Made by a program: the position numbers and the translations under genes. Shown one piece after another: positions 45,428 through 62,864 of a stretch of 64,000 bases of DNA. The stretch is from an uncultured Bacillales bacterium (GTDB lineage: Bacteria > Bacillota_I > Bacilli_A > RFN20 > CAG-826). The notes beneath the pieces were generated by a model. It worked only from the letters and a program-made list of their open reading frames with translations, was not told the origin of the DNA and did no database searches. The stretch is from NCBI GenBank assembly GCA_905197045.1, contig CAJJXG010000006.1, forward strand, positions 9,555-73,554. Direction: 5' to 3'. Numbering within the stretch: position 1 is the stretch's first letter; the number at the start of each line of letters is the position of its first letter.

Positions 45428-47515
45428 ATGGAAAAAGCAGCAAAAAGAAAAAGAATTATTATTAAATTAAATGAATCTAATTACGTTGAAAGAGATATTT
45501 CATGGTGTTATTTTAACTACCGTATTTTAAAAGAAGCTCAAAATAATAATGTCCCACTTTATGAAAGACTTTCATTTTTAGGAATATATTCAAGCAACCT
45601 CGACGAGTTTTATAAAGTTAGAGTTGCTACCTTAAAACGTATTGCAGAAAACACTTCAAAAGACTTTAAAAAAGAGAAAAACCTTGCAAAATCCACTTTA
45701 AAAAAGATTTATTCTCTTGTTTCTGACTACTCAAAAGAATATAACGAAGCAAGTAAAAAAGTCTTTGAAGAACTTAAAAATAAGGATGTTATCTTGCTTG
45801 ATGATTTAACAGTTAATGAAGAGCAAAAAGAATATTTAAGAAGTTATTTTGTTAAAAATATTTCTTTAGATATCAATCCTCTAATTCTTTCTAAAAAAGC
45901 TGATTTTTCTAGCGTCAACGATACACACATCTATTTAGCGATTAAAATGAGTGAGCCACTTAACAATAAGGAAGACAAAAATTGCTATGCTCTTATCGCT
46001 CTTCCTACTTCTCATTGTGGACGTTTTATTGCTCTACCTAGTAAAGACAATAAACACTACTATATCTATCTTGATGATGTTGTTCGTTTAAATCTTGATT
46101 ATATTTTTAAAAACTTACCATATCTAAAATTTGAAGCTTACGCTTTTAAATTTTCAAAAGATGCTGAAATGGAAATTGAATCAGATCCTGAAGAAGGCGT
46201 CTTAAAAAGTATTTCTTTAGCTGTTAAAGAAAGAAAAAAAGGTATCCCAGTCCGTGTAGTTTTTGGTGAAGGAATGCCAAAAGATCTTCAAGAAAAATTA
46301 ATTAAAAAACTTGAAATTGATGATACTGACATTATTACAAAAGGTGGAAAATATCATAACAATAAAGATTTAATGAAATTTCCACGTTTAAACATTGCCG
46401 GTTTATCATATCCAGAATGGCCTCAATCTTTTGAAAAAGCTTTTAAGGTCACTCCTTCTTTAATAGATATAATTTCCAAAAAAGATATTTTAGTTCATGT
46501 TCCTTATGAATCTTTTAATGCCTTCATTAATGTTTTACAAGAAGCCGCAATTTCACCAAATGTAAATGAAATTAAAGCCTCAATTTATCGAGCAGCAAAA
46601 GATAGTAAAGTCATTCAAGCTTTAATTAACGCTTCTAAAAATGGCAAAAAAGTAACCTGTATGGTTGAACTTTTAGCTCGCTTTGATGAATCAAGTAACA
46701 TTTTAATCTCACAAACTTTAAAAGATGCTGGTGTTGATGTTTTAACAGGTAAAGAAGGCTTTAAGGTTCATGGAAAAATTGTTTATATAAGAGTTAAAAA
46801 TGGAAAAGATATTGCAATTATTTCAACAGGCAACTTCCATGAAGGAAACGCTAAAACCTATACTGATTGTCTACTTTTCACTTCTAACCCTAAAATTGTT
46901 AATGAAGTTAAAGAAATTTTTAGTTATATCGCAAATCCTTATGAAAAGCATAATTTTAAAAACTTGCTCGTTTCCCCTTTACACATGCAATCTGTTTTTG
47001 AACGCTTAATAAAAAATGAAATTAAAAATCATAATGCTGGCTTACCAAGTGGTATTAAAATCAAAATTAATCATATTACTGATAAAGCCATGGTTAAATT
47101 GCTTTATGAAGCCAGTAGTAAAGGCGTAAAAGTTGATTTACTTATAAGAGGTAATTCTTCTCTTGTCCCTAATCTTCCTGTAGTTAGCGAAAATATATCA
47201 ATTCACGCTATAATTGATCGTTATCTTGAACATTCTCGTATTTTTGTTTTTGAAAACGCTGGAAATCCACTCGTTTATATGGGTTCAGCCGATTGGATGC
47301 CACGTAATTTATATAACCGTATTGAAGTTATTACTCCTGTTTATGATGAAGACATCAAAAAAGAACTTATTATGATTGTAAATAGAGGTTTAAAAGATAA
47401 TGTAAAAGGCGTTATTGCTAATGGCAAAGATGAATATGAAAGATATATTAATGATGATAAGCCTTTCCGCTCTCAAGAAGAGTTGTATAATTATTACAGC
47501 AAAACAAATAAATGA
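45428..47515 (+). CDS. ppk: polyphosphate kinase 1
   Basis: 695 aa. The N-terminus ERDISWCYFNYRILKEAQNNNVPLYERLSFLGIYSSNLDEFYKVRV is typical of PPK1. Two PLD-like HKD-type domains are present (HGKIVYIR..., HSRIFVFE...GSADWMPRNLYNRIEV). Confidence 0.95.
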   Translation: MEKAAKRKRIIIKLNESNYVERDISWCYFNYRILKEAQNNNVPLYERLSFLGIYSSNLDEFYKVRVATLKRIAENTSKDFKKEKNLAKSTLKKIYSLVSDYSKEYNEASKKVFEELKNKDVILLDDLTVNEEQKEYLRSYFVKNISLDINPLILSKKADFSSVNDTHIYLAIKMSEPLNNKEDKNCYALIALPTSHCGRFIALPSKDNKHYYIYLDDVVRLNLDYIFKNLPYLKFEAYAFKFSKDAEMEIESDPEEGVLKSISLAVKERKKGIPVRVVFGEGMPKDLQEKLIKKLEIDDTDIITKGGKYHNNKDLMKFPRLNIAGLSYPEWPQSFEKAFKVTPSLIDIISKKDILVHVPYESFNAFINVLQEAAISPNVNEIKASIYRAAKDSKVIQALINASKNGKKVTCMVELLARFDESSNILISQTLKDAGVDVLTGKEGFKVHGKIVYIRVKNGKDIAIISTGNFHEGNAKTYTDCLLFTSNPKIVNEVKEIFSYIANPYEKHNFKNLLVSPLHMQSVFERLIKNEIKNHNAGLPSGIKIKINHITDKAMVKLLYEASSKGVKVDLLIRGNSSLVPNLPVVSENISIHAIIDRYLEHSRIFVFENAGNPLVYMGSADWMPRNLYNRIEVITPVYDEDIKKELIMIVNRGLKDNVKGVIANGKDEYERYINDDKPFRSQEELYNYYSKTNK

Positions 47516-47525
47516 GGTTTAATAA

Positions 47526-48431
47526 ATGAAGAGTGGTTATTATGCTGGTATTGATATTGGTACAAATGGAGCTCGTCTTGTAATTAAAGACGCTTTTTAT
47601 AATGAAAATCGTGAACTTGAGGCGGTTGAAGTTAATAAAGTTCGTGTTCCTTTAAGACTTGGAGTCGATGTTTATTCTATCGGCGAACTTTCAGAAAGAA
47701 AAATTCATCAACTTTCATTATGTATTTCTTCTTTTAGAGATTTAATGAATATATATGATGTTGTTTCTTATTCTTGTCTTGCAACAAGCGCTATGAGAGA
47801 AGCAAAAAATGGTACTGAAGTAATTGAAAGAATTAGAAAAGAAACTGGCGTTCAAATTTCTATAATTGATGGAGAAACCGAAGCAAAAACAATCTCTAAA
47901 ATCGCTAAAGATTTTAAACTTGACGATGATAAATATGTTTTTATTGATGTTGGAGGAGGCTCAACCGAAGTTACTTTAGTTTCTAAAGGAAAAGCCATTG
48001 AAAGCACTTCTTTCGAACTTGGTACTCTTAGAATTTTAGCTCACAAAGATAAAAAAGAAACTTGGGGACGCTATGAAGATCTTCTTGATTCATATCATGA
48101 TAAATATGGGGCTTTAGATATTGTCGGAACTGGCGGAAATATTAACCGCTATTGGAAAATGAGCAAGAAAAAATCAAACAAAAAAGATTTAAACTATTTA
48201 ACAGTTGATGATCTTAACTCTTTATATAATGAATTAAGTAAATACACTCCTTCTCAAAGAATGGCTAGATATGATATGAAGCCTGATCGAGCTGACGTTA
48301 TAATTCCAGCCGGAAACATCTTTAAAAAAGCTAGCGAGATTTTAAAATCAAAAATAATTTATGTACCAATGATTGGTTTAAGTGATTCAATTGTTGATAC
48401 TTTAATTGAAAATTATATTAACGTAATTTAA
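47526..48431 (+). CDS. ppx: exopolyphosphatase, Ppx/GppA family (short, two-domain form)
   Basis: 301 aa. ASKHA phosphate-1 motif GIDIGTNGARLVI and phosphate-2 motif IDVGGGSTEV. Lies directly downstream of ppk. Confidence 0.85.
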   Translation: MKSGYYAGIDIGTNGARLVIKDAFYNENRELEAVEVNKVRVPLRLGVDVYSIGELSERKIHQLSLCISSFRDLMNIYDVVSYSCLATSAMREAKNGTEVIERIRKETGVQISIIDGETEAKTISKIAKDFKLDDDKYVFIDVGGGSTEVTLVSKGKAIESTSFELGTLRILAHKDKKETWGRYEDLLDSYHDKYGALDIVGTGGNINRYWKMSKKKSNKKDLNYLTVDDLNSLYNELSKYTPSQRMARYDMKPDRADVIIPAGNIFKKASEILKSKIIYVPMIGLSDSIVDTLIENYINVI

Positions 48432-48455
48432 TAAGATTTAAGTAAAAATTAACCC

Positions 48456-48488
48456 AAAAAATATCTAACGATTATGTTAGATATTTTT
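48456..48488. terminator. bidirectional rho-independent terminator (ppx on + strand, large operon on - strand)
   Basis: Stem ATATCTAAC / GTTAGATAT (~48461-48469 / 48476-48484) with a 6-nt loop, flanked by AAAAA on the left and TTTTT on the right. Confidence 0.8.
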
Positions 48489-48520
48489 TGATTTTTATTT
48501 AAAAAGCCTGCAAAACTTAA

Positions 48521-48976
48521 CTATTTGGCCAAAAATAAGTATTTTTCAAGAAATAAATCTAAATTAACAAAATCACTTTCGTTTGGTCTATTTTTATTAA
48601 CGCCACCAAAAAGTTTTAAAGGACCAAATGTTGTAAAACCTTTAGTGTGATATACTCCAATTATTTTATTATTAAATCTCAATAACTCTTTTTTAATGCT
48701 ACTTGCAAAACTTGCTTTATCAAGGCAAGAAGTAAAAATTAAAAAGACTTTTTTGTTATTGATATTTCTTTTACTTATCAAAGAAATAATATCTTTATGG
48801 AATTCAAAGCCATAAATTCCACTAGCAAGTCCAATATAATCGTATTTAGATAAATCTAAGTTATTATCTATCTCGTCTACATTTAAAAGTTCAAAATTAT
48901 ACTTATCTTTTAAATGTTTTATTAATCGATAAGTATTTTGATGATGATATGATTTATAAATTATTAACGTTTTCAT
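48521..48976 (-). CDS. flavodoxin-like fold protein
   Basis: 151 aa. MKTLIIYKSYHHQNTYRLIK...IGLASGIYGF resembles the short flavodoxin-family (Flavodoxin_4/5) layout. It is the last gene of the operon and overlaps the upstream gene by 23 nt. Confidence 0.6.
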   Translation of the reverse strand: MKTLIIYKSYHHQNTYRLIKHLKDKYNFELLNVDEIDNNLDLSKYDYIGLASGIYGFEFHKDIISLISKRNINNKKVFLIFTSCLDKASFASSIKKELLRFNNKIIGVYHTKGFTTFGPLKLFGGVNKNRPNESDFVNLDLFLEKYLFLAK

Positions 48977-51494
48977 AATTTTTTAAATAATCCAGAGATG
49001 GTGCTTCATTAAACCACTTAGCTTTTGAGGAGTCTAATCCATAGAATTTATAGTTATTAAATCCAATTACGTTAAATGATGCTCTTAGCATTGCTACTTT
49101 CATAGTTTCATATTTTGCTTTTGGATCACGATTAAAATCATTACTATGATAAGCTTTTAAATCAAGAGAATAAGTAAATGGATCAACTTCAAGAAGAGGC
49201 GTTAAATACGATTTTAACTCTTCATTTAATACTAATTCGCTTTCATTATAACCTCCTCCTTCAATATAAAAAGGAAGATTAATCTTATTGTCTTTAAGTA
49301 ATGAATTTGAATAATTATCTAAAAGAAGTTTTTTAAGAGGTAAATAATCTTCTTCAGTTATATTAACTTCAAAATCACTTCCTAATCCACCATGAGAAAC
49401 AATTAAGGTTTCAATATCTTGACCAACTAAAGATTCATAAGTTAATTGATTTACGTCTTTCCAATCATAAAAATTAACGCCTTCTCCTATTTCAACTTTA
49501 GTTGGGAAAGAAGTTAATGCCATCTTTTCTGGATAAGCATCAGACATATAAACTCCAAGTAACATTTTAAAGACACTGGTAATGTTTGTTTCTAAAAAAC
49601 TACCTTGAGGGAGAGTATCAAGAGAAATTGCGCTTATTCCACTACTTGCAAAATTTGTATGACCAATTTTTGTTGTACCAGCATAAACTTTATTGTTATT
49701 TTCATCTACAAAACCATTTCGATTAGTTAAAGCATTAATCAAGGTATCTTTAAAGGTTATATATTCTTCTTTAGTATAATTTGGTCCGCTGATATTTAAA
49801 AATTCACCGGCTTGAGTATTCAAAATCGCTGAAAAAGTAAGCATTGAATCAGCTTTATAAGTTTTTTGAGAATAATTAGAAGTAATTGGCTCTAGATAAG
49901 AAGATTTAGTTGAAGAAAGACGTTGACCATTTTCTCCACTATATTCAACTCTTTCATCATAATTTACATGATTAAATTCATTGCTTCCGCTTCTAAAAAG
50001 AAATTCCATCGCATTTTGAATAAGTGAATTTTCAATTAAAAGATTTTTAGATGAATAACTTCTAATAACATTTTTACCATTTTCAATAATAGAATTTTTA
50101 ATAGTTACATTGTCAGCATTAATATCTAGAGTTGAACCAACGTATTCTAAATTTGATAAGTTATTTCCAAAATCACAATTTTTAAAATGAACATCATTAA
50201 TAGTGACATTATCTGAATCAATATAAACTCCACTATTATCTTGTCCATATAAAGTAAACATTGGTAAAGTATCACTCATTGAATAATTTGGATTACCAAG
50301 TGTTACAAAAGGAAGTGGACCTCGATATAAATCGTCTTTTTCTAAATAAGGAACGAGGTAAGTTTCTCCATCGATTGTGACATTTTGTCTTCCACTAGGA
50401 TATGTAAGTTCATGTAAATTAATCGTAAAACCGTTCCCATAAAAATCATCTTGAATATGAAGTCCGGCATAACGCATGATACTAGTTTTTTCTTCTCCTT
50501 CATGCTCGCCTTTATCAATTTCAGCATTCCACTTGTTTAAAAAATCATGATTATATGTTGTTTCAAAAGTGTATAAATCATCTTTAAAATCACTTATTTC
50601 ATTATTTTCATCAATTCGACCAAATAAAGCTGTATTTTTACTTTTAGCTCCTATGATATTGCCATCTTCATCAAAATTATAAGTATTTGCATAAGATTCT
50701 AAGTTTGTTCTTAAAACAATTTTATAAGGTTTATTTGCTTTGTTAGTTAAAGAAATTAAACCATCATAACTATAAGCGTTAACTCCTTCAACTAAAGTAA
50801 AATTAAAACTTGCTCCTCCAGTTGAACTATATGGATGAATGAAATTAATATAAGCTTCTCCACTTCCTAAAAATGAAGCTGTTTTACTTGTTTTATCAAA
50901 ACTTACATTACTTGAAGTTTCAATATTAATTCCATCAAGAGTTAAATTAGTTCCAATTATATCAATATTAAATTCAAGTTTAGCATCAGAGTTAACTCTT
51001 CCTTCACTTCTTGAATCGTAAGCTTCTTTAGAATCATATAAGCCCACATAATTTCTATTTTCAATATGACTTTGAGAAAAAGGAATAATTGGATTAACAA
51101 TAATTCCTCCACTATCACCAAAAATTTTGGCAGTAAATGAAGCAGGAGAGGTTGATCCTTTAACAGTTGAACAAGTAATTATCGATTCACCTTCTTTTTT
51201 AGGAACAAGATAATAATCTTCTCCTTCTTTTAAAATCTCCGCAACACTTTCATCACTACTTGACCAAACAAGTAAATTGCCTTCACTTAAAGGATAATTT
51301 TTATCATAAATTGCTTCTGCTTTTAATAATTGCTTTCCATCGCGTAAAAGAAAGCCAACTTCACCATCATATGGTAAAAGAATGCTAGTGATATTTACTT
51401 CAACCGAACGAATTACATAACTTGCTGTAACAAAAGCAAGAATTGCAATTACAAAAGGTAAAAGTAATAAAAAGAGAAAGGCTTTCTTTTTCAT
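48954..51494 (-). CDS. large secreted/anchored protein: Big_2-like domain plus right-handed parallel beta-helix repeats
   Basis: 846 aa. N-terminal signal/anchor MKKKAFLFLLLLPFVIAILAFVTASYVIRS. An Ig-like segment (LVWSSSDESVAEILKEGEDYYLVPKKEGESIITCS). PbH1-like repeats (NVTINDVHFKNCDFG..., DNVTIKNSIIENGKNVIRSYSSKNLLIENSLIQNA). Confidence 0.75.
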   Translation of the reverse strand: MKKKAFLFLLLLPFVIAILAFVTASYVIRSVEVNITSILLPYDGEVGFLLRDGKQLLKAEAIYDKNYPLSEGNLLVWSSSDESVAEILKEGEDYYLVPKKEGESIITCSTVKGSTSPASFTAKIFGDSGGIIVNPIIPFSQSHIENRNYVGLYDSKEAYDSRSEGRVNSDAKLEFNIDIIGTNLTLDGINIETSSNVSFDKTSKTASFLGSGEAYINFIHPYSSTGGASFNFTLVEGVNAYSYDGLISLTNKANKPYKIVLRTNLESYANTYNFDEDGNIIGAKSKNTALFGRIDENNEISDFKDDLYTFETTYNHDFLNKWNAEIDKGEHEGEEKTSIMRYAGLHIQDDFYGNGFTINLHELTYPSGRQNVTIDGETYLVPYLEKDDLYRGPLPFVTLGNPNYSMSDTLPMFTLYGQDNSGVYIDSDNVTINDVHFKNCDFGNNLSNLEYVGSTLDINADNVTIKNSIIENGKNVIRSYSSKNLLIENSLIQNAMEFLFRSGSNEFNHVNYDERVEYSGENGQRLSSTKSSYLEPITSNYSQKTYKADSMLTFSAILNTQAGEFLNISGPNYTKEEYITFKDTLINALTNRNGFVDENNNKVYAGTTKIGHTNFASSGISAISLDTLPQGSFLETNITSVFKMLLGVYMSDAYPEKMALTSFPTKVEIGEGVNFYDWKDVNQLTYESLVGQDIETLIVSHGGLGSDFEVNITEEDYLPLKKLLLDNYSNSLLKDNKINLPFYIEGGGYNESELVLNEELKSYLTPLLEVDPFTYSLDLKAYHSNDFNRDPKAKYETMKVAMLRASFNVIGFNNYKFYGLDSSKAKWFNEAPSLDYLKNYENVNNL

Positions 51495-53101
51495 CTGGCT
51501 TCTCCTTCATATTTCATAAAAAGTTTAGTAACGCGTGATTTAATTTTGATAATGAAAAATGAAATAACAATAAGTTCTAAAACAATTATTGATAAAAAGA
51601 AAATTACTGTTTCTAAATAAGCTTCAACAAGTAGAGATAAAAGAGCGCCTAAACTAACAGCAAAAAGAGGAAAAACAAAACTTATTAAAACGGTTAATAA
51701 ACTTGATTTATTCTTGCTTTTTAAATCGCTATATAAAGCAATAATGTTAAGTAAAATAATTGATAGCCCTCCTACTAAAATTAAAAAGGCAAAATCAATT
51801 AAACTTATTTCATTAAAAATAACTAAAGCAAGTATGGAAATAAAAAAGGAAATAAAAGATAAAATAGTTGGAACAGATATCTTGATTAAAAGTTGTTTAA
51901 AATAACTTACAGGCAAAGTTTTCATAATAATTAAAGTATTCTTCTCTTTAATTAAAGACATTGAACTAGTGGTATTAATAATAGCAATAAAAAGCATTAT
52001 TAAAATTACATCAACTGTTAAAAATATTGATGGAAAAAGAGTTGATATGTAATTTAAATTCCCTGTTCCAAATATTAAATTCACTGCAGAAATCACACTA
52101 AATACTAAAAATGGTTCTAAAATAATTAAAGATATATAAGAAAAAATTCCATCACTATTACTTAAAGCAAGATTAAATTCTTTTCTAATTAAAGCTCCTT
52201 CAATTGAAGATAATCTAATTGAAAAGATCTTATGTTTTTTTCTACTTATAAAATCATTAGCCCCTTGATAATAATTTAATAAATACTTATTAAAAGTAAA
52301 TAAAGCGATAACAAAAGAAAAGATAATAAAGCTTATAAATATTACAAAGTTAAGATTAACCTCATTTACTTTTGATAGTTCAATTATATTTTTAATTGGG
52401 TAAAGAAAACTAGAAACAGTTTTCATCACTTCAACATTATCAACTGTAAATAAAGAACCTATATCATCGTTTCTAATTAAACTAACAAATAAATTTAAAA
52501 CTCCGCCATATAGTAAAGCTAGAAGAATTAAAAAGATCATCATGACAATAAAAGAGATAATTCGATAGCGTGATACAATCTTTCTAATTTCTCTAAAAGG
52601 AATTACTAGTAAAAAAGCAAATGTTTCAATTAAAACTCCTACTCCTAAAAAAGTAAAAAACATTAAAACAAAGAAAACAAAATCTGTTTCGCTTTTAATG
52701 CCATATGCCATCATTAAAGGAAACATAGTTGAAAAAACAAAAAGTAAAGATTTAAAAAAGATATTTAAGGCTTTAGCAAAAATAATATCAAAAGAACTTG
52801 CTGGAGATGTTCCTAAAATGATTCTTTCTTTTTGGTTTTTAAAGAAAGCATTATAAGTAATTGGAACAAGCGAAAATATACCAACAATAAATAAAGCAAA
52901 CTCAATAATAATAAATAAAGCATCATTAAAATCAGTATAGACATTAACCTTATCAAAAATATTGATATATAAAAGCACTTCTAGAGTTATAAAAAGAGCA
53001 AGTAAAACAAGAGAAGATAATAAAGTAAAAATCTTCTTCATTCCTTTTTTTGCTAAAAAGGAACTCTCTTTAAATTCTTTTAAAAATAAACGAGCAATCA
53101 T
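51491..53101 (-). CDS. polytopic membrane protein, putative ABC exporter permease partner
   Basis: 536 aa with ~12-14 TM helices and no recognisable soluble domain. 4-nt overlaps with the ABC ATPase gene upstream and the beta-helix protein gene downstream. Confidence 0.6.
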   Translation of the reverse strand: MIARLFLKEFKESSFLAKKGMKKIFTLLSSLVLLALFITLEVLLYINIFDKVNVYTDFNDALFIIIEFALFIVGIFSLVPITYNAFFKNQKERIILGTSPASSFDIIFAKALNIFFKSLLFVFSTMFPLMMAYGIKSETDFVFFVLMFFTFLGVGVLIETFAFLLVIPFREIRKIVSRYRIISFIVMMIFLILLALLYGGVLNLFVSLIRNDDIGSLFTVDNVEVMKTVSSFLYPIKNIIELSKVNEVNLNFVIFISFIIFSFVIALFTFNKYLLNYYQGANDFISRKKHKIFSIRLSSIEGALIRKEFNLALSNSDGIFSYISLIILEPFLVFSVISAVNLIFGTGNLNYISTLFPSIFLTVDVILIMLFIAIINTTSSMSLIKEKNTLIIMKTLPVSYFKQLLIKISVPTILSFISFFISILALVIFNEISLIDFAFLILVGGLSIILLNIIALYSDLKSKNKSSLLTVLISFVFPLFAVSLGALLSLLVEAYLETVIFFLSIIVLELIVISFFIIKIKSRVTKLFMKYEGEAR

Positions 53102-53841
53102 TCTTCCTTCTCTTGATATAGTTTTAAGAATATCTTTTCAATACGATTTCTTAAACTTGGTTCATGTTTTAAATCATATACCTCATATATTCTTCCATCT
53201 TTAATAATCGCCACTCGATCACAAAGTTTAGAAATAAGGTCAATATTATGACTTGCTACAAAACAAGTATTACCATGTTTTACATAATCTTTCATAAGTA
53301 AAGAAAGTTCATTAGCACTCATTGCATCAAGTCCAACTGTTGGTTCATCCAAAATCCAAATTCTTGGGTTATGAATTAAAGAAGCAATTAAGCATACTTT
53401 TTGTTTCATACCATGAGAATATTCTCTAATCTCACGATATAAATCTTCTTCATTAAATTCAAACTTCTTTAATAGATAAGTTAAATTTTTAAAGAAGATT
53501 TGCGGATTTATTTGATAAATTGATGATACAAATTGAAGATATTGAATACCACTCATATCTTCATAGCATGTTGGCTCACTTGCTACATAACCAATTATCT
53601 TTTTAACTTCAATTGGCTTATCTTTAATATCTAATCCTTCAACAAATATTTCTCCACTATCAAAAAGTTTTGAACCTAAAATACATTCAATGGTTGTTGA
53701 TTTACCAACACCATTTTTACCAATAAAACCAAAAAGTTCTCCTTCATAAATCTCTAGATTAATATCAAAAAGAACCTGCTTCTTATTGTAGCTTTTATTA
53801 AGATTAACAAGTTTTATAGAGGAATTTAATGTTTCTGACAT
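53098..53841 (-). CDS. ABC transporter ATP-binding protein (ABC-2/drug-exporter type)
   Basis: The track ORF starts at a TTG (53856). The ATG at 53841 has GGAGG 9 nt upstream and overlaps the upstream TAA by 1 nt. Walker A GKNGVGKST, signature YSHGMKQK, Walker B WILDEPTVGLD, H-loop ASHN. Confidence 0.9.
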   Translation of the reverse strand: MSETLNSSIKLVNLNKSYNKKQVLFDINLEIYEGELFGFIGKNGVGKSTTIECILGSKLFDSGEIFVEGLDIKDKPIEVKKIIGYVASEPTCYEDMSGIQYLQFVSSIYQINPQIFFKNLTYLLKKFEFNEEDLYREIREYSHGMKQKVCLIASLIHNPRIWILDEPTVGLDAMSANELSLLMKDYVKHGNTCFVASHNIDLISKLCDRVAIIKDGRIYEVYDLKHEPSLRNRIEKIFLKLYQEKEE

Positions 53842-56504
53842 TATGAAAGCCTCCAAGCTGGATGGGTGTAATATGAATCACCACTTGAAACAAACTTAGC
53901 AGTTTTATTTTCGTCAACAACACTTCCATTATAAGACTTGAATCTTTTTAAATTAATAGTCATGTCTGTTGTATTAATTTTTGCAAATACACCTCGATAA
54001 AATGCAAAATTTTGTGAATTAAATTGTGCTCTGCTATCTACTACTGTAGCAATACCGGTTGATGAATTATAATTCACCCTATAAAATGTTCCATCCAGAT
54101 CATTAATACCCCTATAAAAATCTGAAATTGAACTATATTGTGCTTTATTTACATGCAGTAATTCACTGTCTAGATAATTATTAGAACTATCTGAAGGAAA
54201 ATAACCATAATAAGCATTACCAACTTGAATAATTCCGAGTCCAAAGTCATAAGTGATTTTTGAAGTTAAGTAATCATCTCTAATTCTCGTCAAATAATTG
54301 TTTCTAATATCAAATAAAACATTACCATTACTAACTAGCGGCAAGAAGAAATAATCTGTAACATTAAATCTATAGCTCGCCCCACTGTAATAAGTAATTC
54401 CAAGAATTTTATAGGCTTCTGTTAATCTATTTGGACCAGATTTAAAGGCTTTACTATAAAGCAGCACTTTATCATTCGCATTATCAATTTTATTTTTAAA
54501 ATCCTCTAAATCATAAATATTTATAGTTCCGCCTAAACTATATTTCAAGCTATCATTATTATAGTTTTGTAATTTATCTGAATCATCGAAATCATCAAAA
54601 ACGAATTTACCATAAAAATCAAAATATGCAGGTGTTTTATTAACATATGTCCAAAAGTCGGACATACCACTATATACGGTACACATTCCAGAGGAATAAC
54701 TTCCTTTAAAATCTGAATTATCAATATATTTACCAGCATCTCCAAAATCGTATAACTCATTAATAAATGTAAGCCCTGCAATTCCTACAAAAGACTGTGC
54801 TGGCACTTTTAATCCAAGACTTCCAAAACCGCTAATGCTTTGCTCATTTGTATATGAAAATCTAATTGTTGAATTTTGATCTCCATACATTGAAGACCCT
54901 GGCATGAAATTCAACTGATTAAGAATTGTTACGCTCGTTGATAAAAGATGAAAATCAAAGTATGGTGGTATAAACCAAGGGCATTTATTCATATTTACGC
55001 TTATTTCACCAAGACTCATCTTTACATTCAAATTATTCGGTAATTGAACTTCAATATCACAATTATAAGCAGTATAGATTATCTTTTGATACATCACGTT
55101 ATTGTAAGCAGTTTTACTTGAGGATTTTGATAAGGCTTCTTTCAAACTACCTTCACCAGTGTTATAAAACACATTTCTTAAAATATAAGAATCATCAGGC
55201 GAATTGCAAGTATTAATTAAATATTTTTCTTTGCCGTTAAGGTCGCTACTGCCAATCAAATTAATTTTGTTTAATGAATAATTTGAATTGTCAGCGCCCC
55301 AATCAAGTTTCATATTTCCAATAAATTTAGACCCTTTCTCGAATATAATTGGTACGTTTATATATGGGCATCGATACATTTTAAAAAAAGAATCGCTATA
55401 GTTATAATTCATAGGTGCTCCACTTTCGTGATGGTGATCTTCAACAACAAAAGTGGCAATTAAGGTTGCTCCGTTTTTCATTATAATTTTGCCAGTTTTA
55501 TTTGGTGAAGAATCAGTAATGGTACCATATACTTCGATAGTACTATTTTCAGAAACGATTAATGTGTTACCATTTAAATCTAACTCGGAATAAGGCCCGG
55601 TTATAAACCCTTGCCAATTATATTGTGAATACCCATCATTTGATCCATAAAAAGAAGTAAGGGCTCCAATTGACAACACACTAGTATTGCTAAGAATAGT
55701 ATCTCGCCCTAAAACTACTTTGCTTATGCAGTAATTTCTGCCGTTCGAACCATTTCCTGCTGTTGGCTTAAAATCGCTCACGGAACTTGTTGGATCTTCT
55801 AAGGAAATCGTTGTATCATCATTAGCTTGGTATTTTCTATAATTAGAACCAAACAATGGTTTATCGAAATTAGGAAGGTCAGCAACATACTCATCATCAT
55901 CAGATTTGAAGTTAAAAGATAAATTCAAATCGTTATAAAAGCCATTATTTAATTCTACAACTGCAGCTGGACTTGTACTTGTGTTCCCGTTTTCACAATT
56001 TTGATTGGTTTCATTAAAATTATAGGTATTGCCATTACCTTCGATAGACACACGACTATCATTAATAGTTGAATTTCCTATTGATTGATTAAAGTCATTC
56101 CCTTGAGGGGTTTGAACATAACGTGCTTCAGGTTCTAAAATAAGTTCTTTGTTTACCGTAATTTCTTTTTTAAGCGCATTATTATCATTTGGATCGTTAG
56201 GGTTGAAATAAATAGTATCTTGATCATCTTTCCAAACGTAATAATTCCCTGCGTTGTCAAACAAAAATGGTACTTCTTCAATCGATAATTTGTCATTGTT
56301 TTTGACATATATTTTCTTGATGGAATTTCCATTTGTATCGTAAAACTCAACTTTTTTGTAATTAGGGTCTTGGTTTTCACCACCAATGTTTAAATCGCCA
56401 TTAAGTCCTGTAATATTAAAATTAGCGATTATATAGTTGCCATATCCAACCCATAAAATTGAAGAGAATAAAATAAATATTAACAACAATATTCTTTTTT
56501 TCAT
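53841..56504 (-). CDS. large N/S/Y-rich secreted protein, unknown fold (probably beta-rich)
   Basis: 887 aa. N-terminal signal/anchor MKKRILLLIFILFSSILWVGYGNYIIANF. I recognise no family. Contains an HHHE run (VVEDHHHESGAP). Confidence 0.7.
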   Translation of the reverse strand: MKKRILLLIFILFSSILWVGYGNYIIANFNITGLNGDLNIGGENQDPNYKKVEFYDTNGNSIKKIYVKNNDKLSIEEVPFLFDNAGNYYVWKDDQDTIYFNPNDPNDNNALKKEITVNKELILEPEARYVQTPQGNDFNQSIGNSTINDSRVSIEGNGNTYNFNETNQNCENGNTSTSPAAVVELNNGFYNDLNLSFNFKSDDDEYVADLPNFDKPLFGSNYRKYQANDDTTISLEDPTSSVSDFKPTAGNGSNGRNYCISKVVLGRDTILSNTSVLSIGALTSFYGSNDGYSQYNWQGFITGPYSELDLNGNTLIVSENSTIEVYGTITDSSPNKTGKIIMKNGATLIATFVVEDHHHESGAPMNYNYSDSFFKMYRCPYINVPIIFEKGSKFIGNMKLDWGADNSNYSLNKINLIGSSDLNGKEKYLINTCNSPDDSYILRNVFYNTGEGSLKEALSKSSSKTAYNNVMYQKIIYTAYNCDIEVQLPNNLNVKMSLGEISVNMNKCPWFIPPYFDFHLLSTSVTILNQLNFMPGSSMYGDQNSTIRFSYTNEQSISGFGSLGLKVPAQSFVGIAGLTFINELYDFGDAGKYIDNSDFKGSYSSGMCTVYSGMSDFWTYVNKTPAYFDFYGKFVFDDFDDSDKLQNYNNDSLKYSLGGTINIYDLEDFKNKIDNANDKVLLYSKAFKSGPNRLTEAYKILGITYYSGASYRFNVTDYFFLPLVSNGNVLFDIRNNYLTRIRDDYLTSKITYDFGLGIIQVGNAYYGYFPSDSSNNYLDSELLHVNKAQYSSISDFYRGINDLDGTFYRVNYNSSTGIATVVDSRAQFNSQNFAFYRGVFAKINTTDMTINLKRFKSYNGSVVDENKTAKFVSSGDSYYTHPAWRLS

Positions 56505-56510
56505 CTTTTG

Positions 56511-57230
56511 CTACCTGTAGTCTTCAAAAATAAGTTCAACGTTTACGTTTCCAAAAGTTAAAACATTATATTCTTTTGAATAGCCAATAGATTTATCGAT
56601 TATTTCAAAATTAAAATTTAGGTTGAAATTCCAAGCAAAATCCATTTCAACTCCTCCGACGACCGTTGAATATCGGTTATCAAAATCATTATCTTCTGCG
56701 ATTCTTTGAATATAGAAGTCACCTCCTGCACTATCAGAAGAAAATGATATATGCGAATAACATGTTAAATTGTCACTATCAAACTCTAAACAATTATTTC
56801 CGCCTGATGAATATTTTTCCCCGTATTTCATTGTTAAAGAATAATCACTTCCATAACTCAAGCTTATGAAGTCATTTTTAACGTTTTCTTTTACATGATT
56901 GAATAAAGACGAAGACGTAAAAGTAAGTTTGACGCCAAGTCCAGAATTTATACTAATATTGTTAGTGTTCTCATGATATTTTTTCTGATTTATTTGAAAA
57001 ATTATTGAAAAAGTATCATTTACTATATCGCTATCATAAGTACCAATGCTTTTATTCCCATAATATGTTAAGAAATTTTGCCCTTCGCTTGAAATAGTAA
57101 TGTCATCAGGATTGATTTCAACAATTTTATCTTTATCACCATCAAAAATGTAAGCAGAAAAGCCGATGCCGATTACAGATAAAACAGCAAAAATAAAGGA
57201 AAAAACTATAAAAATTTTCTTATTCTTCAC
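56511..57230 (-). CDS. secreted protein, unknown function, SipW-type signal-like N-terminus
   Basis: 239 aa. N-terminus MKNKKIFIVFSFIFAVLSVIGIGFSAYIFDGD. 4-nt overlap with the upstream gene. Confidence 0.7.
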   Translation of the reverse strand: MKNKKIFIVFSFIFAVLSVIGIGFSAYIFDGDKDKIVEINPDDITISSEGQNFLTYYGNKSIGTYDSDIVNDTFSIIFQINQKKYHENTNNISINSGLGVKLTFTSSSLFNHVKENVKNDFISLSYGSDYSLTMKYGEKYSSGGNNCLEFDSDNLTCYSHISFSSDSAGGDFYIQRIAEDNDFDNRYSTVVGGVEMDFAWNFNLNFNFEIIDKSIGYSKEYNVLTFGNVNVELIFEDYR

Positions 57231-58363
57231 GATAAGACCTCATAATAGGCATAAAACGTTGTATCTTCAAAAATAGGCGTAAGGTCTGTAAGTCTTCCTG
57301 ATAAAGGGTTTGCAGGCCCTTCTGGGGTAGTATAATAACCTTCAAATGAATAACCTTCCATCGTGCACAATGGTATACTCGCAATATTAATAGTGCTGCC
57401 TGCTTCAACAACGATTTTCCCAATTGTTTCGCTTACAAATTTGCCACCATTAGTGTCAAAAGTTACTATACATTTTTCTGTTTTTTTGTTGTTTTCGGTT
57501 AAATTTATAACCTCAACAAAATTCGTACCATCAAAAAAATAAATTATAAAATTCTCTTGATCAAAATAATAATCGCCTTCTACCGCTTCGCTTTTAATAA
57601 TACTATTTGCAGGACCTAAACCGTAATGCCGCTTAGTTGCACGTGGCAAGCTTATAGGCTCTAAGTCCTGTGTAGTACCATCTGTATAATTAATAGTTAT
57701 ATAGTAATAATTATCAATCTGTGTACTAGTAATCGAAATAATGCCTCTTCCATCTTCACCATTTTTATATGGAATTGTAATTACAGTTTTTCCGTTATTA
57801 CCCATACTAGGATCAGAATATGTAATTGTTATAATAATATTTCCTTCATTATCTACATCTTTGTCAACACTTGAAATCCCAATTCCATCTTTTGGTTTAT
57901 CAAAAGTATTTGTTCTAATCGTATCACCATTACTAAGAGTAAAAACAAATTGATATTGTTCAGTATCTGGATCAACAACCAAAGTCGATTCAACAACACT
58001 CACCCCATTAGGAACAGTAATTGTTTCAGGAGGTACTTCATCACTTGTAAAAGTAATTGTTAAGATAGTTGAAAGTCCATCACTTGATTGAGTTGCACTA
58101 ATGTCTTTTATACCTAAGCCAGCTACACCTACTGGACCAGTTTCACCAACTGCTCCTTTAGGAATCTCAAAAGTTAAGGGTTCAACATCTGTGTCAGTAA
58201 AATACATCGTAACTAAAGTCGATCCATTTGCACTTGTTGAAGATTCTACACGGTCAATCATTAAGCCTTCACTTGTTCCGCCAAATAGTGAACACGAAGA
58301 AAGCGTTAAAGATAAAAAGAGAAATAAAGAAGAAATTATACGTTTAAATTTCATAATCATCAC
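57227..58363 (-). CDS. modular lipoprotein: short collagen-like G-X-Y run, four ~40-aa beta modules, C-terminal Listeria/Bacteroides (Flg_new) repeat
   Basis: 378 aa with lipobox LTLSS-C-S. G-X-Y run GAVGETGPVGVAGLG. Repeated modules begin G[LI]GI.[DS][IV]. The C-terminus VTFDTNGGKFVSE...EGYSFEGYYTTPEG is the Flg_new/TIGR02543 pattern. Confidence 0.75.
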   Translation of the reverse strand: MMIMKFKRIISSLFLFLSLTLSSCSLFGGTSEGLMIDRVESSTSANGSTLVTMYFTDTDVEPLTFEIPKGAVGETGPVGVAGLGIKDISATQSSDGLSTILTITFTSDEVPPETITVPNGVSVVESTLVVDPDTEQYQFVFTLSNGDTIRTNTFDKPKDGIGISSVDKDVDNEGNIIITITYSDPSMGNNGKTVITIPYKNGEDGRGIISITSTQIDNYYYITINYTDGTTQDLEPISLPRATKRHYGLGPANSIIKSEAVEGDYYFDQENFIIYFFDGTNFVEVINLTENNKKTEKCIVTFDTNGGKFVSETIGKIVVEAGSTINIASIPLCTMEGYSFEGYYTTPEGPANPLSGRLTDLTPIFEDTTFYAYYEVLS

Positions 58364-59471
58364 CTTCTAAATTAACTGCAAATATATTAAAAATCCATGC
58401 AAAAGTCCCTTCTTTTTTCTTAATTAAGGTATAGTCAGCTAAACAGAAAGGACAAGATTCATTTTCATTATCTTTTTTACAAAGTGGACAAATATTTTCT
58501 TTACTTCTTAATACAGTTTTTAAAGAATAGATAATCTCAACGATGTCTTTTATTTCTTTTATAAAGATAGAATAATCTTTATCATCGTAAGTTAAGATTA
58601 AAGCTTTTGAAAATAGATTAACTTTTAAATCAAAAATATAATCTTTTTTAAGATTAATATCTTTATTTAAAAGAGATAAGAATAACTTTCCTTCTTTTTT
58701 AAAAGAGAAAACAAAATTCTCTTTTAAAAAAGAGAGATAATTACTCTTATTAAAGATAACTACATTATCTTTATCTTTACTTAAAATTAAATATAAATCA
58801 TTAAAGATTTCATTTTTTAAATTTTCACTACTTTCTTTATGTTTACGGTAGTAAAAATAAAGATAAGAATAATCTTTATCGTTAAGTAAAATATTTGTTC
58901 CATAGACTTCATTAAAGCTTACTTTTTTAATGTATCTAAAAAAGTCTAACTTTAATAGATTAACAACTTTTCTTAAATAAATTTCTAAATTCTCTTTATA
59001 AGCGTTTTCCTCTTTAATTAAGTCGACTTCACTATTAATATAGCTTTTTAATAAAGAATATGTTCCAAACTTTCCATAACTAATTCCACTTTTTAAAAAC
59101 GGAATCTTTTCTTTTTGAAGAAGTGATAAGCCATTTTTTAAATCTTCCTCGAGTGTTAAAAGAAGGAATAATATAAAACGATTTTCATAAGTATCAATAT
59201 TTTCATCATAGCTATATTGATATAACTTTTTAGGGAAAATATTATTTCCTTCCTTTGTAAATAAACGAGCATCTTTTGTTGTTTTATTAATTAAAGATTT
59301 ATCATAGCGATGAAACTCTTCAATTCGAGTAATTTCTTCTACTCTTTTTAAATCAACTTTATAAGTAAGCGTAATATTATAAACATGCTCTAAAAGAAGA
59401 CTTATTTCATTAAATAAGTTTAGCGTTAAAGTTGAGATATTTTCTTTTTTATTTGCTCGCACTTCTTTCAC
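58344..59471 (-). CDS. DUF2357/McrC-like partner protein with a C-terminal CxxC-N10-CxxC zinc ribbon
   Basis: 375 aa. The motif IDTYENRFILFLL resembles the (D)TxENRF signature I associate with DUF2357 McrC-type proteins. A possible degenerate PD-(D/E)xK is NKDINLKKDYIFDLKV. Zinc ribbon CPLCKKDNENESCPFC (~58445-58490). The start overlaps the stop of the AAA+ gene by 1 nt. Confidence 0.55.
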   Translation of the reverse strand: MKEVRANKKENISTLTLNLFNEISLLLEHVYNITLTYKVDLKRVEEITRIEEFHRYDKSLINKTTKDARLFTKEGNNIFPKKLYQYSYDENIDTYENRFILFLLLTLEEDLKNGLSLLQKEKIPFLKSGISYGKFGTYSLLKSYINSEVDLIKEENAYKENLEIYLRKVVNLLKLDFFRYIKKVSFNEVYGTNILLNDKDYSYLYFYYRKHKESSENLKNEIFNDLYLILSKDKDNVVIFNKSNYLSFLKENFVFSFKKEGKLFLSLLNKDINLKKDYIFDLKVNLFSKALILTYDDKDYSIFIKEIKDIVEIIYSLKTVLRSKENICPLCKKDNENESCPFCLADYTLIKKKEGTFAWIFNIFAVNLEGDDYEI

Positions 59472-61288
59472 TAAATTGATCTCCTTAAGTATTTATTAAT
59501 TAAAGCTTTGGAGTATTTAAAAGAATCTAGACCAAATTCGGTGTCTAAAACTTTAATTAAGCGAGTTAAACCATTTCTTAAACTTGAATTATAGCGTGAT
59601 TCAAGTTTTCTTAAAATCTTACTTGTAAATAAAGCATCTAAACAATCAAGACTTGTTAAACCCATTGCTTCATAAATTGGAACCATTTCATCAAGTTGAC
59701 GAATAATACGATTACCAATTGTGATATCAAGTTCGTTAGAGATAAAATCTAAAACTTTTAAGAATTTATTACGTTCACTCTCTTTGAATTTATATTCTTT
59801 TTCAGCGTTTTTAAAAAGTTCATGAAGTTTTTCATAACTTAAAGAAATAGCAGTAAACTCTTTATCAAATTTAATTTCTTTTTGAGTGTTTTCAAAATCA
59901 ATAACAATTGCTCTATCAATAACTTTATCTGTAATTGTAAAAGTAGAATCATCTTTATTAGCTGTCCCAATAAAATAGGTATTAGGAGTAATAATAAGTT
60001 GACCTTTTTCTAAGTTTTCAGGAGCATCATAATCATCTGGAAGAAGCATTAAAGAAATACGACGATCTTCTTCTGGAAATTCCATAACACTTAAAAAATC
60101 AGCAAAATAATATTCAACACGGCTAATATTCATTTCATCAAGAACTACAAGATTAATACGCCCAACTTCATAACTTGCCTTATATAGATTCTCTAAAAAT
60201 GGAGTTTCATTATATTTACCAGTTAATTCATTATAAAATCCTAATAAATCTGATTTTTCTTTATATGTTACTTGAATTGCTTCAAAATAAGCTTCTTCAC
60301 CAATAAATTTAGCAAAATAACGTGGAAGCGAAGATTTACCAGTTCCACTAACACCTTCTAAAATAATGAATTTAGAAGCGTTAAGCCCTGCAATAAATTG
60401 AGCAAGTTCATGCTTGTTATAATAAAGTTTTAAAGATGTTGCAAGATAGCCTTGAAGATTATCGAGAAGATCTTTTAAAGTAATGTTTTCAGTATCGCTT
60501 ATTCTCCCACTACTTAAGTTTTGATTATCTATTGCTACTAAATTTTTAAAGACTTCTTCTTTTTTAGCTAATTCTTTTGAAAGTAAGCCACCTCCGCTAG
60601 CTCCAATTGAAGAAGCATTAACTCCATTAATAAATTGAGGAACCTTATTTAAAGAATTTACATCGCTAAAAGAGTTAGCAAGATCAGCTTTTTCTTCTTC
60701 CTCTTTCTTTTTAAGTTCTTCTTTTAATTTTTCTTTTTCTTCATCTTCCTCATTAATGCTTTTTGGTTTTCTTCTTAAGCAATAATTTAAAACTCCAATT
60801 ATTGCCCAAAATAGACCAAGTAAAACAGCGTATACTAAAAGAGCAAGTAAAAGAGCACTAAATACAAAACCAAATGTTGTATCAAGATGAGCAATTCCAC
60901 CAACCTCTCCTTGTTCGCCAAGCTGAAATAAAATCCCTAAGCCAATTGCAAGCGCGAAGCAACTTGCAAAGCTTGCACTATAATAAGCAAAAGCTTTAAT
61001 AGAATAAGTTTTTCCATTATGTTTTATTAAAAAACGACGCAAAAATAAAACTAAAACAGCAAAAATAATAATAAAAACAAGAATAAAAATAAGTAATATC
61101 CATATGCCTGAATAAGTTTCTATGCTTGGCATATTTAAAAGTTCAGCAAGACCAGCAAAAATATTATTTTTGTTCATGGCGGTGTGACTACCATCCATCC
61201 CTAAAGCTGTTAATAAAGCAACAATTACATAAAAGATGGTAAGACCTATAGCCAGCCATTCTCCACTAGATAACTTCTTTTTCATCAT
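59471..61288 (-). CDS. membrane-anchored McrB-like AAA+ (AAA_5) NTPase
   Basis: 605 aa. Residues 1-~175 contain 4-5 TM helices, followed by an E/K coiled coil. The AAA+ core has Walker A LEGVSGTGKSS, Walker B plus McrB-type continuation LVVLDEMNISRVEYYFADFLSVME, and FIGTANKDDSTFTITDKVIDRAIVIDF (compare the McrB GTMNTADRS...RRF region). Confidence 0.7.
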   Translation of the reverse strand: MMKKKLSSGEWLAIGLTIFYVIVALLTALGMDGSHTAMNKNNIFAGLAELLNMPSIETYSGIWILLIFILVFIIIFAVLVLFLRRFLIKHNGKTYSIKAFAYYSASFASCFALAIGLGILFQLGEQGEVGGIAHLDTTFGFVFSALLLALLVYAVLLGLFWAIIGVLNYCLRRKPKSINEEDEEKEKLKEELKKKEEEEKADLANSFSDVNSLNKVPQFINGVNASSIGASGGGLLSKELAKKEEVFKNLVAIDNQNLSSGRISDTENITLKDLLDNLQGYLATSLKLYYNKHELAQFIAGLNASKFIILEGVSGTGKSSLPRYFAKFIGEEAYFEAIQVTYKEKSDLLGFYNELTGKYNETPFLENLYKASYEVGRINLVVLDEMNISRVEYYFADFLSVMEFPEEDRRISLMLLPDDYDAPENLEKGQLIITPNTYFIGTANKDDSTFTITDKVIDRAIVIDFENTQKEIKFDKEFTAISLSYEKLHELFKNAEKEYKFKESERNKFLKVLDFISNELDITIGNRIIRQLDEMVPIYEAMGLTSLDCLDALFTSKILRKLESRYNSSLRNGLTRLIKVLDTEFGLDSFKYSKALINKYLRRSI

Positions 61289-62193
61289 TATTTTTCCTTT
61301 TTTAGTTCTTTAGTTAACTTCTCAGTTTTAATTAAAGAGTTTATATCATTTTCTTCTCTATTTTCATTAAATATATAGACGTTTTCTTTAACAGTTAATG
61401 TTCCTGAAGAAGAAATTAATTCATATGTTTCATTTTCACTAACTACAGATTTAATTTCTTCTTTTAAATATGTAATGCGTTTGTCTTCTACTTTTTCAAT
61501 TGATGATTTAACAAAATAATAAACTATAGAAAGAAGAAGAATGAAGCTAATTGTTGAAATACCATAATCACTTGAAAGAAAGAAAGTAAATGCGCCAATT
61601 CCAGGAATTTTCACTCCGTTATATTTACCAACAATATCATCAAGTCTTATTTGAATATTATCATTAGCGTTATTTGCATCGCCTCTTGTGATTAGATAAT
61701 TTTCATTAACTTCAACAACACGATGAACAATTCTTAAATTTTCATCATTTTCATAACAGATAATATCGTATAGCTCTACTTCATCTAATGAAGTAACTCT
61801 ATCTAAAAATATTAGATCATTAACTTGAATCTGATTATCTAAATGATTTTCAAATAAATAATCATTTTCTTCATTTTTTTCTGACATTGAACCAGTTGCA
61901 ATAACTACGCTTTTAATAGGAAGAGAAGATATATTAATAGTTTTATCAACAATACCAACTAAAAATAATAAACCTAATAAAGCAATTAAAACATCAAGTC
62001 CAATATCTAAGCTTTTTTTAAATATCTTATGCTTTTTATTTTTAACTTCTCTTAGATGGTCTTCATATATTAATTCTGAGTCAAGATAACCTTCTTTAAT
62101 TTCTTTAACACTACTTTGTCTTTCATATATTAAGAAAGAGATTACTCCTATTGCAAAAACAATTAAGATTACAAGAACAATATAGAAGACCAT
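61288..62193 (-). CDS. sipW: signal peptidase I, SipW-like (ER/archaeal S26B type)
   Basis: 301 aa. Catalytic Ser box ATGSMSE, His box IVHRVVEV, and the conserved GD-NN box TRGDANNANDN. TM helices lie on both sides of the catalytic domain, with an ~80-aa charged C-terminal tail. Confidence 0.75.
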   Translation of the reverse strand: MVFYIVLVILIVFAIGVISFLIYERQSSVKEIKEGYLDSELIYEDHLREVKNKKHKIFKKSLDIGLDVLIALLGLLFLVGIVDKTINISSLPIKSVVIATGSMSEKNEENDYLFENHLDNQIQVNDLIFLDRVTSLDEVELYDIICYENDENLRIVHRVVEVNENYLITRGDANNANDNIQIRLDDIVGKYNGVKIPGIGAFTFFLSSDYGISTISFILLLSIVYYFVKSSIEKVEDKRITYLKEEIKSVVSENETYELISSSGTLTVKENVYIFNENREENDINSLIKTEKLTKELKKEK

Positions 62194-62219
62194 TAGAAGT
62201 TAATTTGTTAGTTTAAAGA

Positions 62220-62864
62220 TTATGCGCCTGCTCCAGCATCAACTTGAGTAATTGTAACAACAAAAGTTGTACCATTAACTGCTGTTGCAAATGCATTTAA
62301 TTCATTAAGTACAACGTTAACATCAGTACCTTCTTCGATTTTAGAATTATAAAAAGCTGCAGGATCCGTTGGATTCGTTTCTCCAAATGCACTTCCCCAA
62401 GACCAAGTTAATGGTAGATTATAGGTAAACCCAGTTTCGGTATTTCCAGATGTAAATTTATCTTTTGTTACTGTAGTTGTCTCTGGCAGTTTAATATAAT
62501 TAATAGGACTTGTAACGCCTTTACCTTCTTCTGTAACAGCAACATTATAATTAGGGATACTATCTCGATCTTTTGCCTTTACAGTAAGAGGAATATTAAT
62601 AGTTAGATTTCCATTTCCGCTAGTAGTAATTGCTCCTTTGGCAACTGGAGTAGTAGGTTGAAATAAAAGTTCTTCACTAACAGTTCCAACTGTTAAATCT
62701 ACTACCTTGTTATCAATTTCAACTGGACTTGGGTCAACATTTGCTTCGCCTTTATTTTTCCCACCAGTAATGATATAGGCCGCAAGAGCGCTACTTGTAA
62801 TAGCTGCAATGCCTAATACGATCGTACTAGCTAATACGATTTTTTTGTTTTTGTTCCTTTTCAT
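62220..62864 (-). CDS. small secreted beta-rich protein, candidate TasA/camelysin-like SipW substrate
   Basis: 214 aa. N-terminus MKRNKNKKIVLASTIVLGIAAITSSALAAYIITGG. The mature part is T/G/N/V-rich. Strong SD GGAGGGAAG. It is visibly more GC-rich than its neighbours (a weak hint of high expression) and is the first gene of the operon, directly upstream of sipW. Confidence 0.6.
   Translation of the reverse strand: MKRNKNKKIVLASTIVLGIAAITSSALAAYIITGGKNKGEANVDPSPVEIDNKVVDLTVGTVSEELLFQPTTPVAKGAITTSGNGNLTINIPLTVKAKDRDSIPNYNVAVTEEGKGVTSPINYIKLPETTTVTKDKFTSGNTETGFTYNLPLTWSWGSAFGETNPTDPAAFYNSKIEEGTDVNVVLNELNAFATAVNGTTFVVTITQVDAGAGA

Follow-up and report, generated by a model that had tools for sequence, protein, structure and literature searches.

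A SipW-like signal peptidase and a candidate cleavage-site class of exported proteins in a McrBC-associated operon of an uncultured gut bacterium

The 64,000-nucleotide stretch of DNA analysed here, hereafter the window, is positions 9555-73554 of contig C6 in the genome of an uncultured Bacillales bacterium (1.41 Mb, ~28% GC, 96% complete). On its minus strand it encodes, within one closely packed operon, a signal peptidase of the endoplasmic reticulum (ER)/archaeal type and several exported proteins that share a motif at the end of their signal peptides. The 301-residue enzyme is rather likely to be catalytically active as a signal peptidase I of the ER/archaeal (SipW-like) type and, to judge from the sequences, would with the same good likelihood remove the signal peptides of three proteins encoded in its own operon, here called A, F and G, and perhaps that of a fourth, J. 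The arrangement, present in hundreds of related genomes, is a variant of the SipW-TasA pairing of Bacillus, set in a widespread and unstudied surface-assembly operon. The enzyme and the four proteins are the following:

62220-62864, minus strand: protein A, 214 residues, a small exported protein of a family without annotation
61288-62193, minus strand: signal peptidase I of the ER/archaeal (SipW) type, 301 residues, TIGR02228
56511-57230, minus strand: protein F, 239 residues, a distant paralogue of A
53841-56504, minus strand: protein G, 887 residues, a large exported protein
48954-51494, minus strand: protein J, 846 residues, with beta-helix-like repeats

The peptidase scores 57.2 bits on the archaeal/ER-type model TIGR02228, above the cut-off of 51.85 (59.6 bits for the same model in the genome-frame search), whereas it reaches just 21.6 bits on the LepB-type model TIGR02227, where the cut-off is 47. 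Its 54.4 bits on the Bacillus SipW equivalog NF046067 lie far below the cut-off of 190, and by these scores it is SipW-like in kind and not a SipW orthologue. Where LepB-type enzymes use a Ser-Lys dyad, it has the catalytic Ser, His and Asp, contained in the strings ...VIATGSMSEKN..., ...LRIVHRVVEV... and ...TRGDANNANDN...; these correspond to Ser102 (GSMS), His157 (IVHRV) and Asp172/Asp178 (GDANNAND), and S102, H157, D172 and D178 are invariant in 24/24 homologues. A direct phmmer search of the peptidase against the PDB gives no match and a profile is required; the profile of the 24 homologues finds human SEC11A (7P2P; E = 9e-10), and the alignment includes the IVHRV and GD boxes. SEC11A/C and the archaeal signal peptidase I (S26B) are the best relatives of solved structure and share the catalytic His and Asp boxes, but the match covers only ~residues 120-210 and, unlike them, the window enzyme is stand-alone and of different transmembrane (TM) architecture. 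The usual layout of TM segment, catalytic domain and TM segment is preceded in it by one more TM helix at the N-terminus and by a charged linker of ~50 residues, and is followed by a charged C-terminal tail of ~70 residues. This helix, linker and tail are absent from the SipW-type enzymes of 160-220 residues in the same order; the copies associated with the present system have 276-425 residues. A preliminary description of this DNA, made from the sequence alone, had called the enzyme SipW-like on account of its Ser, His and GD boxes, an assignment that the TIGR02228 score, the invariant residues and the SEC11A match bear out.

The same description had pointed to a shared string in four products of the operon and to a lipobox in a fifth, and all of these are present in the reading frames given here. 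The N-termini run ...ITSSALAAYIITGG in A, ...VIGIGFSAYIFDGD in F, ...LWVGYGNYIIANF in G and ...LAFVTASYVIRS in J, the whole N-terminus of J being MKKK followed by LLLLPFVIAILAFVTA|SYVIRS. Such proteins would enter the membrane via Sec with an ordinary n-region and h-region, and the special part would be the cleavage region. In A the signal peptide takes up ~residues 1-28 and the cut is predicted at A-L-A28|A29-Y30-I-I-T-G-G (motif DNA ~62766-62789); the predicted cuts in F and G are G-F-S25|A26-Y27-I-F-D and G-Y-G22|N23-Y24-I-I. From 220 unique N-termini of relatives the consensus is ...[SA]-L-x-[ST]-[VT]-G(78%)-F(76%)-[AS](97%)-x-[W 71/F 18/Y 11]-[IV]-[IV]-[GST], or in short [ST]-[VT]-G-F-[AS]|x-[W/F/Y]-[IV]-[IV] after an ordinary signal peptide, with a small residue at P3, an aromatic residue at P2, Ala or Ser at P1 and an aromatic residue at P2'. 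A cut after G-F-[AS] would agree with the -3/-1 rule, which asks for small residues there (G/A in 92% and A/S in 97% of the 220), yet positions that this rule leaves unconstrained are also strongly conserved (F at P2 in 76%, I/V at P3' in 75%). Among N-termini drawn from up to 75 related loci, the motif is kept in 190/201 unique ones of the A and F families and in 32/45 of the G family, for example as AFSAYIIEN and AFANYIVEN in the nearest orthologues. The proteins that carry it in these loci have 16-30% overall identity, and it precedes unrelated mature domains: those of the 200-residue A family, of the ~900-residue G family, and of proteins of 465-1135 residues at contig C20 of the host genome.

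Within the host genome the motif is closely associated with genes for SipW-type enzymes. A genome-wide count, proposed in the preliminary description, finds [AGSN]-Y-[IV]-[IVF], the pattern in its strict form, immediately behind a hydrophobic stretch at the N-terminus in 7/1375 open reading frames (ORFs), among which A, F, G and J are the sole four with a signal-peptide-like N-terminus. When the ORFs are ranked by a position matrix that spans P7-P5' and was trained on other genomes only, each of the top 13 of the 1375 is found no more than 14 kb from one of four SipW-type genes (hypergeometric P = 3e-16); F ranks 11th and A 12th, and neither G nor J is among the 40 top-scoring ORFs. The four paralogous enzymes are that of the window and those at C3:30482-31534, C2:58298-59242 and C20:24682-25734, and every one of the loci (4/4) is flanked by motif proteins. 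The neighbours on C3, C2 and C20 carry a Trp version of the motif (G-F-A-x-W), as in VGFATWNIDG, IGFASWVIKN, TGYAAWTIGG and GSGFSAWYFSE, so that the motif is not local to the operon of the window as had been supposed. The C3 locus (16033-36289) is a paralogous second copy of the whole operon, in which six tandem A-like genes (235-273 residues, all with G-F-A/S-x-W) lie upstream of the peptidase. Three more motif proteins occur on C3, of 215 residues (C3:16033-16680, TIGYSAFLISQ), 204 residues (AYASWAMIN) and 1054 residues (TFSAFSLSK). The C2 and C20 loci pair a peptidase with substrates and are without AAA+ or system ATP-binding cassette (ABC) transporter genes, which suggests that it is the peptidase that reads the motif. 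Each of the four paralogues would thereby have its own motif-bearing neighbours, with Tyr or Phe at P2' for the clade of the window enzyme and Trp for the other three. The signal class is also distinct from that of the ~75-110 lipobox proteins of the genome, as was proposed from the outset; the single lipoprotein of the operon (57227-58363) is, by its lipobox, directed to the signal peptidase II route and not to that of the shared motif.

The association extends to other genomes. A search with the AAA+ protein encoded next to the peptidase finds at least 524 related loci in metagenome-assembled genomes (MAGs) from the gut, of which the best 80 were analysed. A SipW-type gene adjoins the AAA+ gene in 76/80 of these best loci, in 60/70 cases the motif is encoded by the gene directly upstream of the peptidase, and a locus has a median of three motif proteins. 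In a survey of 61 genomes sampled from the order, the A family is present in 17/61, SipW-type genes are found in 17/17 of the genomes that have it, and 56/61 of the A-family genes in the 17 genomes lie within 5 kb of a SipW-type gene; the three A-family hits that have no SipW-type gene on their own contig lie no further than ~1-2 kb from the contig start. In a tree of the peptidases a clade of 10 that includes the window's copy (SH-aLRT 99) goes with Tyr/Phe substrates in 10/10 cases, and the remaining enzymes go with Trp substrates in 52/60. This division of substrate flavours fits paralogue-specific substrates as far as sequences can indicate, and both the Y/F and the W type coexist in the genome of the window.

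An explanation for the association is offered by the biochemistry of TasA. According to Musik et al. (PMC10269814), aromatic residues at P2' are absent from the verified LepB substrates of E. coli, and in TasA, which is processed by the dedicated ER-type enzyme SipW, the Phe at P2' and the Trp at P2 hinder LepB. Since the aromatic P2 and P2' residues make TasA a poor LepB substrate, TasA depends on SipW; and since the layout of aromatic P2, Ala at P1 and aromatic P2' is shared (VGGGTWA|AF in TasA, GFA|xW here), the motif can by analogy be read as an address for a SipW-type enzyme, that is, a cleavage site that would need an ER-type peptidase and would be poor for the LepB type. The need for such an enzyme would explain why its gene travels with those of its substrates. 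As in the Bacillus system, an ER/archaeal-type Ser-His peptidase is encoded in one operon with its presumed substrates. Unlike that system, the window proteins have Ile/Val at P3' and P4' where the TasA type has Ser/Thr-Asp, the peptidase is longer than SipW by its extra N-terminal TM helix and C-terminal tail, the host is probably wall-less, and the operon also contains a McrBC-like pair and an ABC transporter.

A number of observations weigh against a peptidase that processes this particular set of proteins. The model TIGR04088 of the SipW-cognate signal class (34 positions, at least 19 bits required) accepts 0/4 of the N-termini and 0/40 family members, and it has zero matches in the whole genome of the window at E <= 10. 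The motif is present in just 9/66 J orthologues, 8/11 in the peptidase clade of the window versus 1/57 elsewhere. The split between Y/F and W substrates amounts to about one evolutionary event, so that enzyme-substrate co-evolution is not proven by it; the pattern is clean but essentially a single split, and we do not claim it as proof. In the AlphaFold2 (AF2) model of full-length A the helix runs on through the motif. Finally, the four paralogues are the sole type I signal peptidases found in the genome, and with LepB lacking they may be general peptidases, which leaves a peptidase dedicated to its neighbours plausible; at 96% completeness a LepB gene might also be missing from the assembly.

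With regard to the first of these points, TIGR04088 does match the controls (B. subtilis, Haloferax) as well as relatives in the same order, where canonical members stand beside short SipW genes (...IGGTYALFTDS, ...SSATYAAFSDQ). The proteins of the window are like these in having a special signal class next to SipW-type peptidase genes, and by sequence the motif here is a separate class from TIGR04088 that current models do not recognise. What stands of the earlier comparison with the SipW-cognate class is therefore the concept, together with the aromatic P2' residue as in TasA (PMC10269814), and not membership of TIGR04088. A genome of the same family, G024, holds eight canonical TIGR04088 proteins (on its contigs C7, C13 and C4), two of which, on C13, adjoin a short SipW-type gene; it also holds A-family loci with long SipW genes (C8, C15), so that both signal classes are found in one genome.

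With regard to J, its N-terminus is highly conserved as MKKK-x-L-x-x-LLL-I-P-F-[IV]-I-A-L-L, with a Pro in mid-helix, and the protein contains parallel beta-helix-like repeats (NVTINDV..., NVTIKNSIIENG...). J is probably a membrane-anchored beta-helix protein and, on its sequence, probably not a conserved member of the motif set; it is doubtful as a substrate, at best a clade-specific one, and may be an uncleaved anchor. The sharing of the motif that was first ascribed to all four proteins is thus conserved for A, F and G and lineage-limited for J. Similarly, the proposal that the peptidase is dedicated to the four is favored by the gene coupling across genomes, is weakened by the possibility of a general role where LepB is lacking, and is doubtful in the case of J.

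That possibility leads to the alternative that best survives, namely that the four SipW-type paralogues are general, interchangeable type I peptidases, which motif proteins adjoin because those loci encode nearly all of the non-lipoprotein exports of a reduced genome. A LepB-type signal peptidase I was not detected in the 96%-complete genome (best E = 0.36), several relatives are likewise without one, and in a rough census few other convincing non-lipoprotein signal peptides are found outside the four loci. However, LepB is above the cut-off in 43/61 genomes of the order, including carriers of the A family and SipW such as G007, G042 and G015, G024 combines TIGR04088 substrates and their own short SipW with A-family/long-SipW loci, and the Y/F and W flavours track the peptidase clade; taken with these observations a general role alone appears unlikely. 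Somewhat less likely again is that the N-termini are uncleaved signal anchors. In that case G-F-A-x-W-I-I would serve at the membrane interface or in the packing of subunits, and the peptidase homologue would act on something else or assist assembly as a chaperone, as the non-catalytic SipA does for the pili of Streptococcus pyogenes. Anchoring would be sensible in a wall-less cell, which would lose fully released proteins; the AF2 helix that continues through the motif and the anchor-like N-termini of the J type are in keeping with it, and a signal-peptidase-like pilus chaperone is described in PMC4049620. The Ser, His and Asp of the window peptidase are nevertheless invariant, unlike those of a dead chaperone, the N-termini are built from an n-region, an h-region and a polar c-region as cleavable signals are, the residues at -3 and -1 are small in 92-97%, and the layout copies the proven TasA cleavage site. 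That the motif is a functionless chance resemblance, or a relic of recent signal-peptide paralogy, is extremely improbable: it was defined post hoc from four sequences and the J match is apparently lineage-limited, but it is kept over proteins of such low identity in up to 75 loci and on unrelated mature domains (A, G and the C20 proteins), and an independently trained matrix clusters at the peptidase loci.

The peptidase and its putative substrates are encoded among further genes of the operon, whose order on the minus strand from 62864 to 48521 is A, peptidase, AAA+ protein, DUF2357 protein, lipoprotein, F, G, ABC transporter ATPase and permease, J and a flavodoxin-like gene. The genes not listed above are:

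59471-61288, minus strand: McrB-like AAA+ nucleoside triphosphatase (NTPase), membrane-anchored, 605 residues, weak AAA_5 match
58344-59471, minus strand: McrC-like partner, 375 residues, DUF2357 N-terminal region (PF09823, E = 4.5e-9)
57227-58363, minus strand: lipoprotein, 378 residues, lipobox L-S-S-C (LTLSSC), C-terminal Flg_new repeat (PF09479, E = 2e-6)
53098-53856, minus strand: ABC transporter ATPase (PF00005, E = 1.8e-24)
51491-53101, minus strand: ABC transporter permease with multiple TM segments, 536 residues
48521-48976, minus strand: flavodoxin-like gene (PF12724, E = 5e-8), overlapping the end of J by 23 nucleotides

The ABC transporter (51491-53856) is kept in the operon and the gene order is the same in related loci. 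A promoter and terminator scan finds a terminator-like hairpin at 48454-48491, matched on both strands, just past the flavodoxin-like gene; this hairpin is the sole feature of the scan, which detects no internal terminator in the operon, and no riboswitch or other RNA is found in the operon leader at the gathering or E <= 1 threshold. The flavodoxin-like gene, immediately inside the hairpin, is apparently the last of the operon, and on the plus strand genes for a polyphosphate kinase (Ppk1, four domains) and a Ppx/GppA phosphatase at 45428-48431 converge on the operon end.

The AAA+ protein carries TM helices at its N-terminus, a coiled-coil stretch rich in E/K, the P-loop GVSGTGKS and the NxD signature TANKDD, and it matches PDC-M26A of PADLOC at E = 3.4e-39; the McrC-like protein ends in a CxxC...CxxC zinc ribbon. 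McrBC-derived systems with TM and coiled-coil fusions have been named CoCoPALM (Bell et al. 2024, PMC11090510), and the operon matches these in its NxD McrB-type NTPase with TM and coiled-coil segments, its McrC-like partner and its adjacent signal peptidase. The comparison is based on the TANKDD signature, the TM helices, the E/K stretch, the AAA_5 and DUF2357 matches and the adjacency. Unlike CoCoPALM as described, the pairing of peptidase and motif is found also without McrBC-like genes, at C2 and C20. The paper devotes one paragraph to CoCoPALM, leaves their analysis for later and contains no mention of substrates, a cleavage motif, SipW or TasA (0 occurrences), and a literature search on the motif or on SipW in Mollicutes returned nothing specific.

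Among the best 80 of the at least 524 loci found with the AAA+ protein, the closest public locus is that of 'uncultured Mollicutes bacterium UMGS238', and the other relatives are MAGs of uncultured gut Mollicutes, Bacilli, Acholeplasmatales or RF39-like bacteria; the host is probably wall-less. Bacteria of the RF39/Acholeplasmatales type are frequent inhabitants of the gut in humans and animals, and most of them have not been cultured.

Hundreds of uncultured species of this type carry the A family, with 1-7 tandem gene copies per locus. A jackhmmer search merges the A and F families, with 172 shared members. For 120 homologues of A, among the matches listed from a set of 5.8 billion proteins, there is no Pfam, NCBIfam or source name, and comparison of A, F, G and J with Pfam, NCBIfam and PADLOC gives nothing informative. 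A strongly conserved C-terminal core, F-x-W-G-x-x-F-G-x-x-N-P-x-x-Y-Y-N, is seen in the A family and is lacking in F and its close orthologues. The AF2 models of A are confident, with a pLDDT of 81.6 over the whole protein and of 85.2 over its mature part. They have a beta-sandwich and two helices, and in the mature model the first 15 residues (AYIITGG...) are disordered, which is compatible with, and not proof of, a free N-terminal strand. Membership of the TasA/camelysin family (PF12389, Peptidase_M73) was considered and set aside, there being no Pfam hit at E <= 1, as was a TasA-like or other known fold, Foldseek against the PDB giving nothing at E <= 0.001 and no TasA in the top 50. The Foldseek matches obtained are weak, to immunoglobulin-like folds or donor-strand pilins, with the pilins at the top: CfaB (E = 0.06, TM-score 0.32-0.40), then CooA and FimA.

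Cleavage at the predicted place would leave a short stretch (x-Y/W-I-I), hydrophobic and prone to form a strand, at the start of each mature protein and joined to the rest by a flexible linker. Such N-termini would fit the assembly of a surface structure together with the ABC transporter of the operon and its membrane-bound pair of McrBC-like NTPases, a system of the CoCoPALM type. A more specific proposal, offered tentatively and with the balance tilted against it, is that the A-family proteins are subunits of an unseen surface filament of wall-less gut bacteria, in which the mature N-terminal strand would insert into the next subunit by donor-strand complementation, the McrBC-derived NTPase and the ABC transporter would drive or gate assembly, and co-resident systems would be kept separate by peptidase paralogues that read Trp versus Tyr/Phe sites.

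The candidate cleavage-site class is overlooked by present annotation models, so that hundreds of surface proteins of gut bacteria are left nameless, and the sequence rule G-F-[AS]|x-[WFY]-[IV]-[IV] next to a SipW-type gene finds candidate substrates of the CoCoPALM-type operons, which the sole paper naming those systems leaves undescribed. With four paralogues and two substrate flavours in one small genome without LepB, the organism provides a natural test bed for the specificity of ER-type signal peptidases. The surface structures of the RF39/Acholeplasmatales-like gut bacteria are a likely interface with their host and neighbours.

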